Shown here piece by piece: positions 10,813 through 46,914 of a stretch of DNA of 64,000 nt. The notes under the pieces were generated by a model. The model was not told the origin of the DNA, did not search any database, and saw only the letters and a program-made list of their open reading frames with translations. Source of the stretch: an uncultured bacterium (GTDB taxonomy: Bacteria; Oederibacteriota; PGYV01; CAWJRG01); contig CAWJRG010000009.1 of NCBI GenBank assembly GCA_963845185.1, forward strand, positions 800,001 through 864,000, written 5' to 3'. A program made the translations under genes and the position numbers. How positions within the stretch are numbered: the stretch's first letter is position 1; each line of letters starts with the position of its first letter.

Positions 10813-11181
10813 TTATGGAAGATTTCCTTCCAATTCCTCGCATTGATAGAGGGTTGTTTGGCTGAACGCAACTTTCCCATCCTCGTATATTTGCTCTAAA
10901 ACATCATCCCCGCAACCATCACATGCGGCTAAAGTAACTCTGGTTCCTGATTTTGCGTTATATGTAGGGGATTTCCACGGAAGGCTTGATGGTTCGACTT
11001 CATATCCTATACCATTCACGTAATATGTAGTCTGATAACCGTCATTATTATAACCTCCGCACCCACTGTTTGATACAGAGAAGTAAACCTTGTGGGTAAA
11101 TAGCGAGCAGGAAGAGCAGGACAGTGTAAGAATACAAATTACTGCTAAAACCATTAATAAGATTTTTTTGTGAGTAGACAT
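10813..11181 (-). CDS. Small Cys-rich putative lipoprotein, host of intron copy 1; spliced form join(13075..13078,10813..11168)=MKKILL..., unspliced form MSTHKKILL... from the intron-borne ATG
   Basis: Signal peptide with LSC; paralog of 13211-13558; first 13 nt of this ORF lie inside intron domain VI. Confidence 0.8.
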   Translation of the reverse strand: MSTHKKILLMVLAVICILTLSCSSCSLFTHKVYFSVSNSGCGGYNNDGYQTTYYVNGIGYEVEPSSLPWKSPTYNAKSGTRVTLAACDGCGDDVLEQIYEDGKVAFSQTTLYQCEELEGNLP

Positions 11182-13074
11182 CTTTTATAACCTCCTTTGG
11201 TTACTTAATGCCCCTCTCAGAACCGAACGTGACCGTTTCGGTCATTCGGCTCCACGGGAATACTTCCTAATACGATGACAGCGAATAGGTTAAATGATAT
11301 ATCCTGGGTTCCGGCAATGGGTTGTATCTTAGAAAGCGGCAAAACTGTTCCCAGTTGTAACTTCTTTTCTGGCTTCGCCTGTTTATCCATTTATAGGCGA
11401 GCGCACGATTTCTCCAGTAGAATTTTGTTATTTGGGGCATATTACCGCTTATCCCGTAATAATTGTAGTGGCCCGTTAACTTTCTTCCTAATGCCTGCCA
11501 CCACTGTTTTAATTCCACAAGATTTCTTACGCTCTTTAGCCAGAAGTTCGTCGCCTTCATCTTCTGTTTGAATTTTGTACTTGCCGTCCTTCGGCCTAAT
11601 TTGAAGCCGCCCTTTCTGGTTTTGTCGCAGTAATGAGTAAACCCGAGGAAATCAAAGGTCGGAATTTTCCCGCCTGTATCTTTGGACTTATACCAGGCGT
11701 GGCGCCCGAATACGATTATTCTCGATTTATCTTTGGCGATTTTGAGGCCAAACTTATCAAGCCTCTGTCTTAACATTTCGCCAAACTCCTTTGCTTCGCT
11801 GTCATATTGGAACAGCACAACAAAGTCATCGGCATAACGTATCAGACTGGCGTATCCTTTGAGCTGTCTCTTGACATGCCTTTCGAACCACAGGTCTAAT
11901 ATGTAGTGTAGGTAGATGTTCGCCAGTAATGGGCTTAGTATTCCGCCCTGCGGCGTCCCTTTATCCGTTTCGATAAACTTACCTTCTTCCATAATCCCTG
12001 CATTTAATATCCTGCCGATTAACCTTATCAGGTTTGTATCGGCAATCCTTTGCGTAAGGCATTTCATTAGCCATTTGTGGTTTATGGTATCGAAAAACTT
12101 CTCAATGTCCATATCCACTACTGCGTTGACTGGCTTTGTCATTACTTCCTTATCCAGAATTTTCAATGCCTGATGACAATTTCTGTCAGGCCTGAACCCG
12201 TAAGATACTTCGCTGAAGTCTACCTCAAAGATTGACTCAAGAATTTTCTTTACCCCCATCTGGATTATCTTATCCTCGACGGCAGGTATTCCCAGCGGCC
12301 TCTTGTCTCCGTTTGTCTTGGGGATGTAGACGCGCCTTGTTGGTTGCGGTATGTATCTCCACGCCTTCATCCTATTGATTAAATCCTTGATATTTGCCTC
12401 TTTGTTGACTTCATATTCCTCTATCCTTACTCCGTCAATGCCCGGGGCTTTGTCCTGTTTTAACTCCCCAAAGCACTCCATTAGAAACTCCTCATTGAGC
12501 AGGTGTATCAGCGATGTAAATCTCAATTTTGGATTTTCCTTTGCCCGCATTGTTATGGTCATAAGTTTTGTTGCCATTCCGTCTCCACCTCTGTGTGTGG
12601 CGGTTGTCTCCCTTATGTCCATACGCATTCCCTCTATCCCCTTTTCTCCATCTACTTTCGTAGACTTCATCGATACTATGGGATAGTCAGACTGCCGGAA
12701 CATCTTTTGCGGCTCCTTATCTTTTAGGATTTGTCGCCGCATACTCTCGTTTTGAGGGTGTCCCGGCTCTCCCGAGTTCATATCTGCTCCTTGACATCTT
12801 GACACGGACTTAGACCCCGTCGGATTCCCACTCTCTCGCCTTTTTATGATTGTGGGACTGCTGCCTGCTCTTTTATGAAAAATGTCGGCCTCCGACACGT
12901 TGGCGATTTCGGGGCTCAATACCTTCACTTGCGTTGTATCCCGATGTCTCCCGCCTTCCAGCTTCATTTAGCTCGTTGCCTCACTATTTGTGGAATTTGG
13001 TATTGGGCTGGCGGCTGACCTTTGCCCAGGCTGGACTTTCACCAGCGCGAACCGATACGCTTTTCTCGGCGCAC
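11169..13074 (-). mobile_element. Group II intron copy 1 (1906 nt)
   Basis: 5' GTGCG at 13074; domain V GAGCCGAATGACCGAAACGGTCACGTTCGGTTC (11220-11252) with AGC triad; domain VI stem with bulged A at 11175; internal RT/maturase ORF. Confidence 0.93.
11267..12577 (-). CDS. ltrA: Group II intron reverse transcriptase/maturase, no endonuclease domain (likely start MATKL; frame is open back to 12967)
   Basis: KAPGIDG, RPLGIP, SYGFRP, GTPQGGILSPLLANIYL, RYADD, FDFLGF, domain X GHYNYYG...RRSQK; RBS GAGGTGGAG before 12577. Confidence 0.93.
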   Translation of the reverse strand: MATKLMTITMRAKENPKLRFTSLIHLLNEEFLMECFGELKQDKAPGIDGVRIEEYEVNKEANIKDLINRMKAWRYIPQPTRRVYIPKTNGDKRPLGIPAVEDKIIQMGVKKILESIFEVDFSEVSYGFRPDRNCHQALKILDKEVMTKPVNAVVDMDIEKFFDTINHKWLMKCLTQRIADTNLIRLIGRILNAGIMEEGKFIETDKGTPQGGILSPLLANIYLHYILDLWFERHVKRQLKGYASLIRYADDFVVLFQYDSEAKEFGEMLRQRLDKFGLKIAKDKSRIIVFGRHAWYKSKDTGGKIPTFDFLGFTHYCDKTRKGGFKLGRRTASTKFKQKMKATNFWLKSVRNLVELKQWWQALGRKLTGHYNYYGISGNMPQITKFYWRNRALAYKWINRRSQKRSYNWEQFCRFLRYNPLPEPRIYHLTYSLSSY

Positions 13075-13210
13075 TCATATTCCGCCTCCTTAATTGAATT
13101 TAAAAACAAAACTATTTTATCATTTTTCATTATCCCATGCAAGCAATTTCAGCCAGTATTTACTTTATCCCTAAGTCCAGTGCGTTTTTATTGTGCCATG
13201 AATTAAAAAT

Positions 13211-13558
13211 TTATATTGTGCCGTCAAGGGTTATACCACAGTTATAAGTATCATTGGCGCTTACCAATACGTTCCCATCCCTGTATATGTACATGTTAGT
13301 ATTATTGTTACAGCCTTCGCAACAAAATATTGAAACTGAAGATCCTGCTTTTGCAGTATATGTGGGAGACGTCCATGGCAGGGATGGATAAACCGTATAA
13401 GACGAACCGTTTACAGTATATTCTATCCAACTACTCGTACTGCAGGAACCTGTGTCAGTTACCTTAAAGTAAACTTTGTGGGCAAATAACGAGCAGGAAG
13501 AGCAGGACATCATAAAAACGCTGAATATAGCTAAAACCATTAATATAATTCTACGCAT
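13211..13558 (-). CDS. Small Cys-rich putative lipoprotein, intron-free paralog of 10813-11181
   Basis: MRRIILMVLA...SCSSCSLFAHKVYF...PWTSPTYTAKAG aligns with MKKILLMVLA...SCSSCSLFTHKVYF...PWKSPTYNAKSG. Confidence 0.8.
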   Translation of the reverse strand: MRRIILMVLAIFSVFMMSCSSCSLFAHKVYFKVTDTGSCSTSSWIEYTVNGSSYTVYPSLPWTSPTYTAKAGSSVSIFCCEGCNNNTNMYIYRDGNVLVSANDTYNCGITLDGTI

Positions 13559-44578: not shown

Positions 44579-45022
44579 TTATAATCCATTATCCTGGCAG
44601 GCCACCCAGTGTGAATCTATGGCCGAGGTATTGCCGCTTACAGTTATTGTATGCGTGGATCCCAGTGTTACTGAAAAAGCGCACCAGTTGACATAATAGC
44701 CGTTTGTACCGTTTACATTTACATTGTATGAATCTGTAGCCGGTATGCCGATACTTACATCCGCTGAAGTGCCTGCTGTTATTGAACAGCTCTGCGAATA
44801 ACTGCTTGAATCCGAATTGCGCACTAATTGCACTGAAACAATAGTTTTTGTTGCGCCCGAATCGCTGTTGGTGATGTTGAACATAACATAATTCGGAGTC
44901 TGCGTTGGTATAGGCCCCGGCGATGTGGATGATTTTTTTGTACAACCGAGGTTAAGCATGTTTAAAACAATAAAACAACATCCAACAAAAAAGACTGCTG
45001 AAAATTTTTTGTGAGTAGACAT
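44579..45022 (-). CDS. Putative lipoprotein, host of intron copy 2; spliced form join(46915..46918,44579..45009)=MKKFSAV..., unspliced MSTHKKFSAV...
   Basis: Lipobox NLGC; first 13 nt lie inside intron domain VI. Confidence 0.8.
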   Translation of the reverse strand: MSTHKKFSAVFFVGCCFIVLNMLNLGCTKKSSTSPGPIPTQTPNYVMFNITNSDSGATKTIVSVQLVRNSDSSSYSQSCSITAGTSADVSIGIPATDSYNVNVNGTNGYYVNWCAFSVTLGSTHTITVSGNTSAIDSHWVACQDNGL

Positions 45023-46914
45023 CTTTTATAACCTCCTTTGGTTACTTAATGCCCCTCTCAGAACCGAACGTGACCGTTTCGGTCATTCGGCTCCACGGGA
45101 ATACTTCCTAATACGATGACAGCGAATAGGTTAAATGATATATCCTGGGTTCCGGCAATGGGTTGTATCTTAGAAAGCGGCAAAACTGTTCCCAGTTGTA
45201 ACTTCTTTTCTGGCTTCGCCTGTTTATCCATTTATAGGCGAGCGCACGATTTCTCCAGTAGAATTTTGTTATTTGGGGCATATTACCGCTTATCCCGTAA
45301 TAATTGTAGTGGCCCGTTAACTTTCTTCCTAATGCCTGCCACCACTGTTTTAATTCCACAAGATTTCTTACGCTCTTTAGCCAGAAGTTCGTCGCCTTCA
45401 TCTTCTGTTTGAATTTTGTACTTGCCGTCCTTCGGCCTAATTTGAAGCCGCCCTTTCTGGTTTTGTCGCAGTAATGAGTAAACCCGAGGAAATCAAAGGT
45501 CGGAATTTTCCCGCCTGTATCTTTGGACTTATACCAGGCGTGGCGCCCGAATACGATTATTCTCGATTTATCTTTGGCGATTTTGAGGCCAAACTTATCA
45601 AGCCTCTGTCTTAACATTTCGCCAAACTCCTTTGCTTCGCTGTCATATTGGAACAGCACAACAAAGTCATCGGCATAACGTATCAGACTGGCGTATCCTT
45701 TGAGCTGTCTCTTGACATGCCTTTCGAACCACAGGTCTAATATGTAGTGTAGGTAGATGTTCGCCAGTAATGGGCTTAGTATTCCGCCCTGCGGCGTCCC
45801 TTTATCCGTTTCGATAAACTTACCTTCTTCCATAATCCCTGCATTTAATATCCTGCCGATTAACCTTATCAGGTTTGTATCGGCAATCCTTTGCGTAAGG
45901 CATTTCATTAGCCATTTGTGGTTTATGGTATCGAAAAACTTCTCAATGTCCATATCCACTACTGCGTTGACTGGCTTTGTCATTACTTCCTTATCCAGAA
46001 TTTTCAATGCCTGATGACAATTTCTGTCAGGCCTGAACCCGTAAGATACTTCGCTGAAGTCTACCTCAAAGATTGACTCAAGAATTTTCTTTACCCCCAT
46101 CTGGATTATCTTATCCTCGACGGCAGGTATTCCCAGCGGCCTCTTGTCTCCGTTTGTCTTGGGGATGTAGACGCGCCTTGTTGGTTGCGGTATGTATCTC
46201 CACGCCTTCATCCTATTGATTAAATCCTTGATATTTGCCTCTTTGTTGACTTCATATTCCTCTATCCTTACTCCGTCAATGCCCGGGGCTTTGTCCTGTT
46301 TTAACTCCCCAAAGCACTCCATTAGAAACTCCTCATTGAGCAGGTGTATCAGCGATGTAAATCTCAATTTTGGATTTTCCTTTGCCCGCATTGTTATGGT
46401 CATAAGTTTTGTTGCCATTCCGTCTCCACCTCTGTGTGTGGCGGTTGTCTCCCTTATGTCCATACGCATTCCCTCTATCCCCTTTCTCCATCTACTTTCG
46501 TAGACTTCATCGATACTATGGGATAGTCAGACTGCCGGAACATCTTTTGCGGCTCCTTATCTTTTAGGATTTGTCGCCGCATACTCTCGTTTTGAGGGTG
46601 TCCCGGCTCTCCCGAGTTCATATCTGCTCCTTGACATCTTGACACGGACTTAGACCCCGTCGGATTCCCACTCTCTCGCCTTTTTATGATTGTGGGACTG
46701 CTGCCTGCTCTTTTATGAAAAATGTCGGCCTCCGACACGTTGGCGATTTCGGGGCTCAATACCTTCACTTGCGTTGTATCCCGATGTCTCCCGCCTTCCA
46801 GCTTCATTTAGCTCGTTGCCTCACTATTTGTGGAATTTGGTATTGGGCTGGCGGCTGACCTTTGCCCAGGCTGGACTTTCACCAGCGCGAACCGATACGC
46901 TTTTCTCGGCGCAC
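45010..46914 (-). mobile_element. Group II intron copy 2 (1905 nt)
   Basis: Matches copy 1 wherever compared, except one T fewer near 46483 (domain III region); GTGCG at 46914; domain V at 45061-45093. Confidence 0.93.
45108..46418 (-). CDS. ltrA: Group II intron reverse transcriptase/maturase (copy 2)
   Basis: Protein identical to copy 1 from MATKL to the stop. Confidence 0.93.
   Translation of the reverse strand: MATKLMTITMRAKENPKLRFTSLIHLLNEEFLMECFGELKQDKAPGIDGVRIEEYEVNKEANIKDLINRMKAWRYIPQPTRRVYIPKTNGDKRPLGIPAVEDKIIQMGVKKILESIFEVDFSEVSYGFRPDRNCHQALKILDKEVMTKPVNAVVDMDIEKFFDTINHKWLMKCLTQRIADTNLIRLIGRILNAGIMEEGKFIETDKGTPQGGILSPLLANIYLHYILDLWFERHVKRQLKGYASLIRYADDFVVLFQYDSEAKEFGEMLRQRLDKFGLKIAKDKSRIIVFGRHAWYKSKDTGGKIPTFDFLGFTHYCDKTRKGGFKLGRRTASTKFKQKMKATNFWLKSVRNLVELKQWWQALGRKLTGHYNYYGISGNMPQITKFYWRNRALAYKWINRRSQKRSYNWEQFCRFLRYNPLPEPRIYHLTYSLSSY

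Follow-up and report, generated by a model that had tools for sequence, protein, structure and literature searches.

How can a mobile intron settle directly behind a translation start and still leave the gene that it interrupts functional? This question is raised by a stretch of 64,000 nucleotides (nt) from an uncultured bacterium of the Oederibacteriota (contig CAWJRG010000009.1 of assembly GCA_963845185.1, positions 800,001 to 864,000 of the forward strand), referred to here as the window. On its minus strand a group II intron begins one base after the start codon of a host gene and carries in its domain VI a second Shine-Dalgarno (SD) sequence and a second AUG, the latter in phase with the remainder of the gene. 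A reading of the letters alone, called here the sequence-only reading, had proposed that the intron offsets its own insertion in this way. In-frame copies, phase counts and conservation of the SD support the proposal, with initiation at the domain VI AUG as the step that we infer, and the element is probably a mobile group II intron specialised for start sites, with an in-phase replacement SD and AUG in domain VI.

The domain VI start and its host genes

The host gene starts at an ATG (13078-13076, minus strand) behind an SD that is read directly as AAGGAGG (13085..13091, minus strand). One further base, A at 13075, precedes the intron, whose opening GTGCG from 13074 fits the group II 5' GUGYG. 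With its 3' end placed at 11169 the intron (GTGCG...CTCACA, 13074..11169, minus strand) is 1906 nt long, or 1905 nt if the 3' splice site is taken at CAC| (11170). Two Rfam models match it over their full lengths: RF02005 (group-II-D1D4-6, model positions 1-225) at 13039-12805 with 100.4 bits against a gathering threshold of 49, and RF00029 (domains V-VI) at 11254-11168 with 49.1 bits against 40. The scores of both models are identical for the two copies of the intron in the window.

Domain VI (11172..11216, minus strand) is built from a basal helix, GAG-GGGCAU / AUGUCU-A-CUC in RNA and GAGGGGCAT/ATGTCT-A-CTC in DNA letters, with a bulged branch-point A at 11175, and from an apical hairpin of UAACC (11203-11199) and GGUUA (11192-11188). 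The minimum free energy fold of the domain, at -15.9 kcal/mol, has the same shape as the assigned structure. The intron-borne SD, AAAGGAGG (11191..11198, minus strand), is largely contained in the apical loop. It precedes by 9 nt the ATG at 11181-11179, which sits in the 3' strand of the branch-point helix. All positions that the sequence-only reading had given for the host start, the stem, the SD and its 9-nt spacing, the ATG and the TAACC/GGTTA hairpin proved correct. The 13 nt between the domain VI AUG and the 3' splice site and the 4 nt that separate the host AUG from the 5' splice site correspond to one and the same codon phase. From this ATG an open reading frame (ORF) of 122 codons runs through the 3' exon (10813..11181, minus strand) and encodes MSTH followed by KKILLMVLAV..., a small protein of secreted or lipoprotein-like character.

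Searching the full assembly at the DNA level returned six full-length copies of the intron (1904-1907 nt against the 1905-nt query), nearly identical to one another, and one copy without the intron ORF. All seven are preceded by GGAGG-N5-6-ATGA and followed by AAA. In each copy domain VI has a start codon behind AAAGGAGG, and this codon shares the reading frame of an intact 65-333-codon ORF, so that the expectation of further genomic copies at start codons with the domain VI start in frame was borne out; the start is AUG in six copies and GUG in the ORF-less one. This derivative (L007, C1:269110-269894) measures 785 nt, of which the first 647 nt are 90% identical, keeps the pair at its GTG as U-G, and is in frame with a 246-codon ORF with RHS/MORN-like repeats. 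The second copy of the window (45010..46914, minus strand), one base shorter inside, repeats the same layout in a different gene, as the sequence-only reading had also noted. Its 5' exon ends in CAGGAGGCGGTTATGA|, with the host ATG at 46918-46916, and the ORF from its domain VI ATG at 45022-45020 (44579..45022, minus strand) encodes a lipoprotein-like product, MSTH + KKFSAVFFVGCCF...LNLGC.

Judged by eye, the N-termini of all seven hosts resemble signal peptides or lipoproteins. Pfam identified MORN_2 and FGE-sulfatase domains in some hosts, and three had no match at E <=0.01. The suggestion that hosts are signal-peptide proteins, able to tolerate a few extra residues, agrees with this genome, where all seven look secreted, but is too narrow as a requirement, because relatives of the intron also occupy genes for apparently cytoplasmic proteins. 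An intron-free tandem paralog of the host gene lies next to it (13211..13558, minus strand; MRRIILMVLA), with a near-identical SD region and with ATG CGT AGA instead of ATG AAA AAA. That the paralog with ATG AAA AAA has the intron and the one with ATG CGT AGA has none fits a need for A's after the ATG.

Lengths differ slightly among the full copies (1904 nt at C10:831397, C9:845011 and C11:61541; 1907 nt at C9:699945). The two window copies differ in a homopolymer run (GAGAAAAGGGG vs GAGAAAGGGG, one copy compared by eye), and the length differences may be assembly errors rather than real frameshifts.

Targets, frames and domain VI in relatives

If the layout serves the host frame, it should be visible in other members of the family. 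Relatives were collected with the protein sequence of the intron's reverse transcriptase (RT) only, and the searches were hence blind to the flanks. They comprise 54 genome loci and the best 80 of 330 metagenome loci, with RT identities mostly of 56-83%; the genome loci come from Omnitrophota, Aerophobetes, Syntrophaceae, Actinomycetota, Chloroflexi and one ANME-1 archaeon. RF02005 was scored in eight relatives and reached 90-130 bits, above the gathering threshold of 49.

Among 39 distinct 5' junctions, 31 read ATGN|, one reads ATG| and seven are of other kinds; an SD-like motif lies upstream in 29 of the 30 ATGN sites with enough flank. The GTGA| junction of L135 was left out of this count by a distance filter. 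One of the seven others, that of L116, reads GAGGTGGTGAGT-ACG-A|, with a good SD at the right spacing, ACG in place of ATG and an EBS1 (exon-binding site 1) that still contains UCAU. The host start at this locus may have decayed after insertion, leaving the domain VI AUG as the sole start.

The 3' side was examined in 70 distinct exons of at least 92 nt, with the splice site set at CACA| for loci of the CTCAC type. The longest open phase is that of the domain VI AUG in 59 of the 70 (about 23 expected by chance), and at least 30 open codons are found in the AUG phase in 54 of 70, compared with 11 and 14 for the other two phases. Judged by eye, the translated N-termini resemble those of genuine proteins of diverse kinds, secreted or not, among them a response-regulator-like start, Rossmann-type starts, an IS110-like transposase start, a zinc ribbon and others. 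Together, the 31 of 39 junctions and 59 of 70 exons agree with the prediction that relatives should mostly sit at start codons with the domain VI AUG in frame. Shared by all seven copies of the source genome and by most relatives, the pattern goes far beyond what chance would give.

Domain VI itself retains an in-phase AUG within its last 25 nt in 61 of 64 distinct sequences, and an SD 4-17 nt upstream of the AUG in 55 of 64. Conservation of this SD in related introns, which the sequence-only reading had named as a test, is thereby observed, and in the loop of a covarying hairpin. SD and AUG are both present at 25 of 25 ATGN-inserted loci with domain VI data and at two of six other sites, which suggests that retargeted relatives tend to lose the SD.

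For the structure of domains V and VI, 61 distinct sequences were aligned and pairs were counted on a structure that we specified. Base pairs form in 98.8% of the cells, and 14 of 27 pairs show changes on both sides; none of 500 shuffles reached the observed values, and sliding the partners reduced pairing to 34-50%. Domain V (11220..11252, minus strand, from the RF00029 alignment) is 100% paired at 13 of 13 pairs, six of them with compensatory changes. The basal helix of domain VI is 99.8% paired. The apical hairpin shows compensatory changes in four of five pairs (UAACC/GGUUA, CAAUC/GAUUG, UUUAC/GUAAA), and the columns of the SD GGA core are at least 90% conserved. The apical stem evolves freely, unlike the letters of the SD in its loop. 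Three relatives (L091, L100, L023) have different letters in the basal helix and carry the AUG 3 nt further upstream, again in phase (16 nt). In L025, L028 and L039, which are placed low in the RT tree, domain VI has other letters and neither an SD nor an in-phase AUG. The AUG thus appears to be more than a letter of the helix.

An RT tree was calculated with FastTree from 87 of 134 RTs, limited to ORFs of at least 380 codons around YADD and rooted on eight distant RTs; support values were not examined. It places the loci with SD, AUG and ATGN targets in one large crown group, and the exceptions are either basal or nested retargeted loci. The layout accordingly seems to be that of a lineage which is widespread and has specialised in the sites where translation starts. 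The distant RT relatives L048, L050, L052 and L054 have hairpin flanks, and L048 and L052 are part of the outgroup. No cultured example was found: plasmid relatives reach about 52% identity at best, and neither of the two inspected (Peribacillus, Candidatus Megaera) has the SD-AUG or an ATG target.

Three further features were observed among the relatives. L025, L141 and L143, with EBS1 UAAAGA/UGAAGA, share the non-start site GGGGTC(A)G(A/G)TCTT(T/C)A|, and wherever domain VI can be seen, its SD has been lost. In L014 (1979-2098), L016, L021, L029, L040, L105, L114, L119 and L025, which are scattered on the RT tree, domain VI holds an additional branch of some 70 nt ahead of the SD. It contains a GAAA-capped hairpin, 13 of its 37 predicted pairs carry compensatory changes, and the consensus fold pairs the SD region; the branch might make a tertiary contact or regulate the SD. 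A riboswitch in such long domain VI inserts was considered and rejected, as Rfam gave no match at E up to 1 in eight loci. In two Nitrospirae loci (L036:1227 and L037:1366) a second group II intron lies inside the RT gene after the YADD codons (...GCAGATGACT|GTGCGCC), a twintron of known kind.

Splice junctions, target recognition and translation

Because EBS1 and its partner in the exon, the intron-binding site IBS1, covary across relatives, the 5' splice site is fixed as ATGA|GTGCG. EBS1 of the window intron (TCATAA, 12873..12878, minus strand) occupies 6 nt at a conserved loop position of domain I. As UCAUAA it pairs with IBS1 ATATGA (13075..13080, minus strand), which holds the host ATG plus one base and reads TTATGA in five other copies. 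In relatives EBS1 changes together with the last six exon bases (TCATTT:AAATGA, TAAAGA:TCTTTA, TCCGTG:CACGGA, CATAAG:CTTATG, TGCCGC:GCGGCA). The retargeted L025, L039, L040, L042, L141 and L143 have exon ends other than ATGA, and in each of them EBS1 complements the end of its own exon at 6 of 6 base pairs (bp), G-U allowed. In 35 of the 44 introns aligned, the first four bases of EBS1 are UCAU, which is complementary to AUGA; recognition of AUGA is thus by base pairing.

A second contact is tentatively assigned for the source genome on the basis of complementarity. The candidate IBS2, GGCGG (13082..13086, minus strand), overlaps the last two G of the host SD and is complementary to UCGCC at 12906-12902, the candidate EBS2 (TCGCC, 12902..12906, minus strand) in a variable internal loop of domain I. 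GGCGG stands just upstream of IBS1 in five of the seven copies of this genome, and the others have GGTGG or GGCAA/GGCGT. No unoccupied GG[CT]GGTTATGAAA site is left in the genome although 51 gene starts of the form GGAG-N3-8-TTATGAAA are unoccupied, which argues that IBS2 has a real role and that the perfect sites are saturated. A conserved AGCC(A/G)CCAG loop was ruled out as EBS2, as it does not vary with the target.

The 3' splice site is less straightforward. An intron ending at CAC| (11170) would produce a message of ATGA+AAAAAAATC, in which ATG is followed by eight A's and the gene is out of frame. The site is therefore placed one base downstream, at CACA| (11169), on four grounds: all seven host ORFs follow the domain VI frame; intron-less paralogs of the host genes begin ATG AAA AAA; the branch A then has the distance of 7 nt to the intron end that relatives (A-CUCGAC|) and the Rfam consensus show; and all 16 distinct relatives in the window intron's subclade have A,A after CAC. 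Main-type relatives end in GAC| in 62 of 68 cases and the window subclade reads CAC-A, from which it appears that the subclade lost the G of CUCGAC and that its splice site moved one base downstream. Of the junction that the sequence-only reading had predicted, ATGA|AAAAAATC, the spliced product would stand, favoured by frame and paralogs, whereas the 3' boundary needs this shift of one base. An orthologous empty site was not obtained, since a family-level genome search returned only the source genome; the intron-free paralogs were used instead.

These elements suggest the following mechanism. The UCAU of EBS1 would direct reverse-splicing to the position after AUG plus one base (AUGA|), and two further EBS1 bases, probably together with EBS2 against GGCGG in the source genome, would select among gene starts. 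Insertion would separate the gene from its own SD and AUG, and the replacement would be carried in domain VI, with the SD in the small hairpin loop and the AUG on the 3' side of the branch-point helix. Spliced RNA would restore SD-AUG-ORF and yield MKKILL.... On unspliced RNA a 30S subunit would bind the loop-exposed SD and open the 9-bp branch helix, and initiation at the domain VI AUG would give MSTH+KKILL.... Because the two AUGs share a codon phase, the host protein would be made from spliced and unspliced RNA alike and the insertion would cost little. Translation and splicing should compete on each molecule, since a ribosome on the domain VI AUG would unfold the branch helix and one on the host AUG would cover IBS1. 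Ribosome initiation at the domain VI AUG, and a melting of domain VI that competes with branching, are in this scheme predicted from the sequence and its fold.

Several observations weigh against this interpretation. The proposed end CACA| departs from the usual group II ending AY. Initiation at the domain VI AUG would require melting, because this codon is paired within a stable helix (-15.9 kcal/mol). No RNA run with the locus was found among the sequencing runs searched; the matches were three DNA runs of one study (shares 0.30, 0.25 and 0.00), and their contigs are short low-depth pieces inside the intron, with no joints and no empty site. Sixteen of the 70 3' exons of relatives lack a 30-codon in-phase ORF. 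The 13-nt phase is largely inherited with the conserved sequence, and its preservation is tested by only three independent changes, namely two shifts of the AUG and the one-base deletion of the subclade. Three GG[CT]GGTTATGAA sites without GGAGG exist in the genome, and all are unoccupied. Finally, the variable loop often looks complementary to the SD region, yet over 41 loci its longest pairing, at 4.73 bp, was on a level with the 4.67 bp of shuffled loops (the cross-locus mean being 4.42), and EBS2 as a general anti-SD was rejected. As this pairing is no better than that of shuffles, the near-universal upstream SD may reflect the survival of insertions rather than recognition.

Three other explanations were weighed against a replacement start. 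According to the first, which we regard as rather improbable, the domain VI SD and AUG serve the intron: ribosomes would time or regulate splicing by melting the branch helix, or shield the precursor from nucleases or Rho-dependent termination, and rescue of the host would be a side effect. That AUG and SD share one domain, the former in its branch-point helix and the latter in its apical loop, agrees with such a role, since a bound ribosome must disturb domain VI, and protection of a group II intron from degradation by ribosome association has been published (PMC3851717). A service to the intron needs no codon phase, however, and the phase was kept through all three independent changes; moreover, the SD tends to disappear away from start codons (two of six against 25 of 25).

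The second explanation, that the SD-like and AUG letters are by-products of ribozyme constraint, inherited in one clade, never translated and picked by gene finders as the first ATG, is very unlikely. The 3' strand AUGUCUACUCGAC is almost invariant, by which much of the phase statistic becomes inheritance, and C.te.I1 offers an analogue in which annotated starts in domain V/VI motifs are removed by splicing (PMC3919590). Yet L025 and L028 keep their domain VI helices with other letters and without the AUG, and in L091, L100 and L023 the AUG relocates in phase when the helix changes. The SD stands in a loop for which no ribozyme need for GGAGG is known, above a stem that covaries freely, and all seven host ORFs of the source genome are intact. 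That the insertions merely inactivate dispensable genes, whose ORFs are intact because the insertions are recent, is scarcely credible: the copies are nearly identical and hence young, the hosts are small secreted proteins with paralogs, and the 16 exons mentioned above have no long in-phase ORF, but relatives at 56-83% RT identity, in many phyla and different genes, keep long in-phase ORFs (54 of 70 against 11 and 14 in the control phases), and the diverged ORF-less copy (90% identical over 647 nt) keeps its in-frame GTG and 246-codon ORF.

If the domain VI SD and AUG do replace the host start, the intron would be a clear example of a selfish element that cancels the cost of its insertion at the level of translation and not by splicing alone. 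Gene callers will place host starts inside the intron RNA, giving MSTH or MSTRQ prefixes. The layout also suggests gene-targeting introns that leave the target gene functional. Furthermore, the competition of translation with ribozyme folding on bacterial intron RNA, a long-standing question, could be tested here with a single construct.

Intron type, coding frames and known systems

The RT/maturase ORF of the window intron comprises 504 codons from an AAGGAG-preceded ATG at 12781 (11267..12781, minus strand), with alternative starts at 12703 and 12577; all three ATGs in the RT frame are SD-preceded. NCBIfam TIGR04416 matches the protein encoded by the intron (IEP) over residues 98-469 with 365.6 bits (cut-off 300), and the ORF stops about 35 residues past the end of this match. 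The frame is open upstream to 12967 (566 codons). In this 566-codon frame Pfam matched RVT_1, plus a weak RdRP_1, and found no endonuclease or HNH domain, which fits classes A, C, D, E and F. Relatives share a conserved peptide, QSDYPIVS.K...GEKG, that lies ahead of the canonical RT. For this reason the start of the IEP may be placed well before the TIGR04416 match, within the expected domains II-III. The intron is probably mobile, and in its Rfam D1D4-6 RNA and its RT/maturase without detected endonuclease domain it resembles the small introns of the IIE/IIF-like type.

From the host ATG a 36-codon leader ORF extends into domain I (12968..13078, minus strand); it ends at a TAA (12970-12968), directly followed by the in-frame ATG at 12967. 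The stop at codon 36 recurs in most close relatives examined, and the subsequent ATG is in the RT frame in only part of them. L010, L035, L051, L072, L080, L082, L088, L134 and L147 likewise have a 36-codon leader, TAA or TAG, and then the ATG of a 565-567-codon frame that crosses domains I-IV and continues into the RT. The leader of L022 and L031 is shorter, at 24 codons, and overlaps with the ATG that opens a frame of 623-626 codons. Indels of one base disconnect leader and RT in other close relatives and in four of the six full copies of the source genome. The arrangement could mean that translation of the IEP is coupled to the host start, or it could be stop-poor ribozyme sequence passed on by descent. 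An exchange of signals, in which the intron takes the host SD and AUG for leader-coupled RT expression, gives the host the SD and AUG of domain VI, and lets ribosome occupancy at both decide between translation and ribozyme folding, is unlikely; if true, it would be exon-coupled IEP expression of a kind so far described for organellar introns. In yeast mitochondrial introns the IEP is translated in frame with the upstream exon, and bacterial IEPs have their own ribosome-binding sites (PMC3073962). Part of the present lineage resembles the mitochondrial introns in that the RT frame is open to about 60-110 nt from the 5' splice site and adjoins the leader from the host AUG. It differs in that a stop separates leader and ORF, that the arrangement is absent from some relatives and that SD-preceded internal ATGs exist.

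How does the intron relate to group II introns already known at translation signals? The remark in the sequence-only reading that lineages of this kind have been reported was right, as a IIB1 lineage inserts at initiation and termination codons of housekeeping genes and carries 300-700 nt of inserted sequence close to the 5' end of domain I (Michel et al. 2007, in the summary of PMC12584367); it is, however, a different lineage. At groEL its intron re-creates the split stop codon, with UAA becoming UAG (PMC12584367). The window intron likewise occupies a translation signal, all seven copies lying one base after the start codon. Unlike the IIB1 lineage it has no large 5' insertion: the D1D4-6 match begins at intron nt 36, the ORF that reaches the RT is open from nt 108, and the whole 5' part of the ribozyme is below about 500 nt. 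Its hosts are not housekeeping genes but small secreted or lipoprotein-like ones. It is set apart because the defining 5' insertion is absent, the RNA type differs and its IEP has no detected endonuclease domain. A full SD with an in-phase AUG in domain VI is not mentioned for the IIB1 lineage in the summary given by PMC12584367.

Closer in type are the class E/F introns (Cl.be.I2, Pe.th.I2, Ge.ur.I1), described as IIB-like ribozymes of 450-700 nt without the ORF and with IEPs lacking an endonuclease domain (PMC3753933, PMC3552965). The window lineage resembles them in being small and IIB-like, without an endonuclease domain found, with an AC 3' end in most relatives and with a decisive EBS1. 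A term search of the accessible text of these two papers gave no mention of start codons, ATG or Shine-Dalgarno for class E/F introns. C.te.I1 of Clostridium tetani (PMC3919590) shares with the window intron that annotated start codons of downstream ORFs lie inside motifs of the domain V/VI region. It differs in being ORF-less and inserted after a stop codon; alternative splicing fuses frames, and its starts are removed and are not replacement starts. A domain VI SD with an in-phase AUG was not described in the literature searched, with an earlier mention still possible in Michel 2007, Simon 2008 or Toro 2002, and the replacement start of this lineage has good prospects of being undescribed.

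In a 2015 review the target specificities of bacterial group II introns are only three, namely specific homing sites, terminators and attC sites (PMC4424553). Like class C (IIC) introns, the window lineage is defined by a generic functional signal and not by one gene. Class C introns recognise a DNA hairpin together with a short EBS1 and insert outside genes, whereas the window intron inserts at AUG+1 inside a gene and would compensate the damage; in place of a hairpin, the 5' flanks of all seven copies read SD-ATG-A. If confirmed, homing to start codons with an in-phase SD and AUG in domain VI would be a fourth target strategy of bacterial group II introns.

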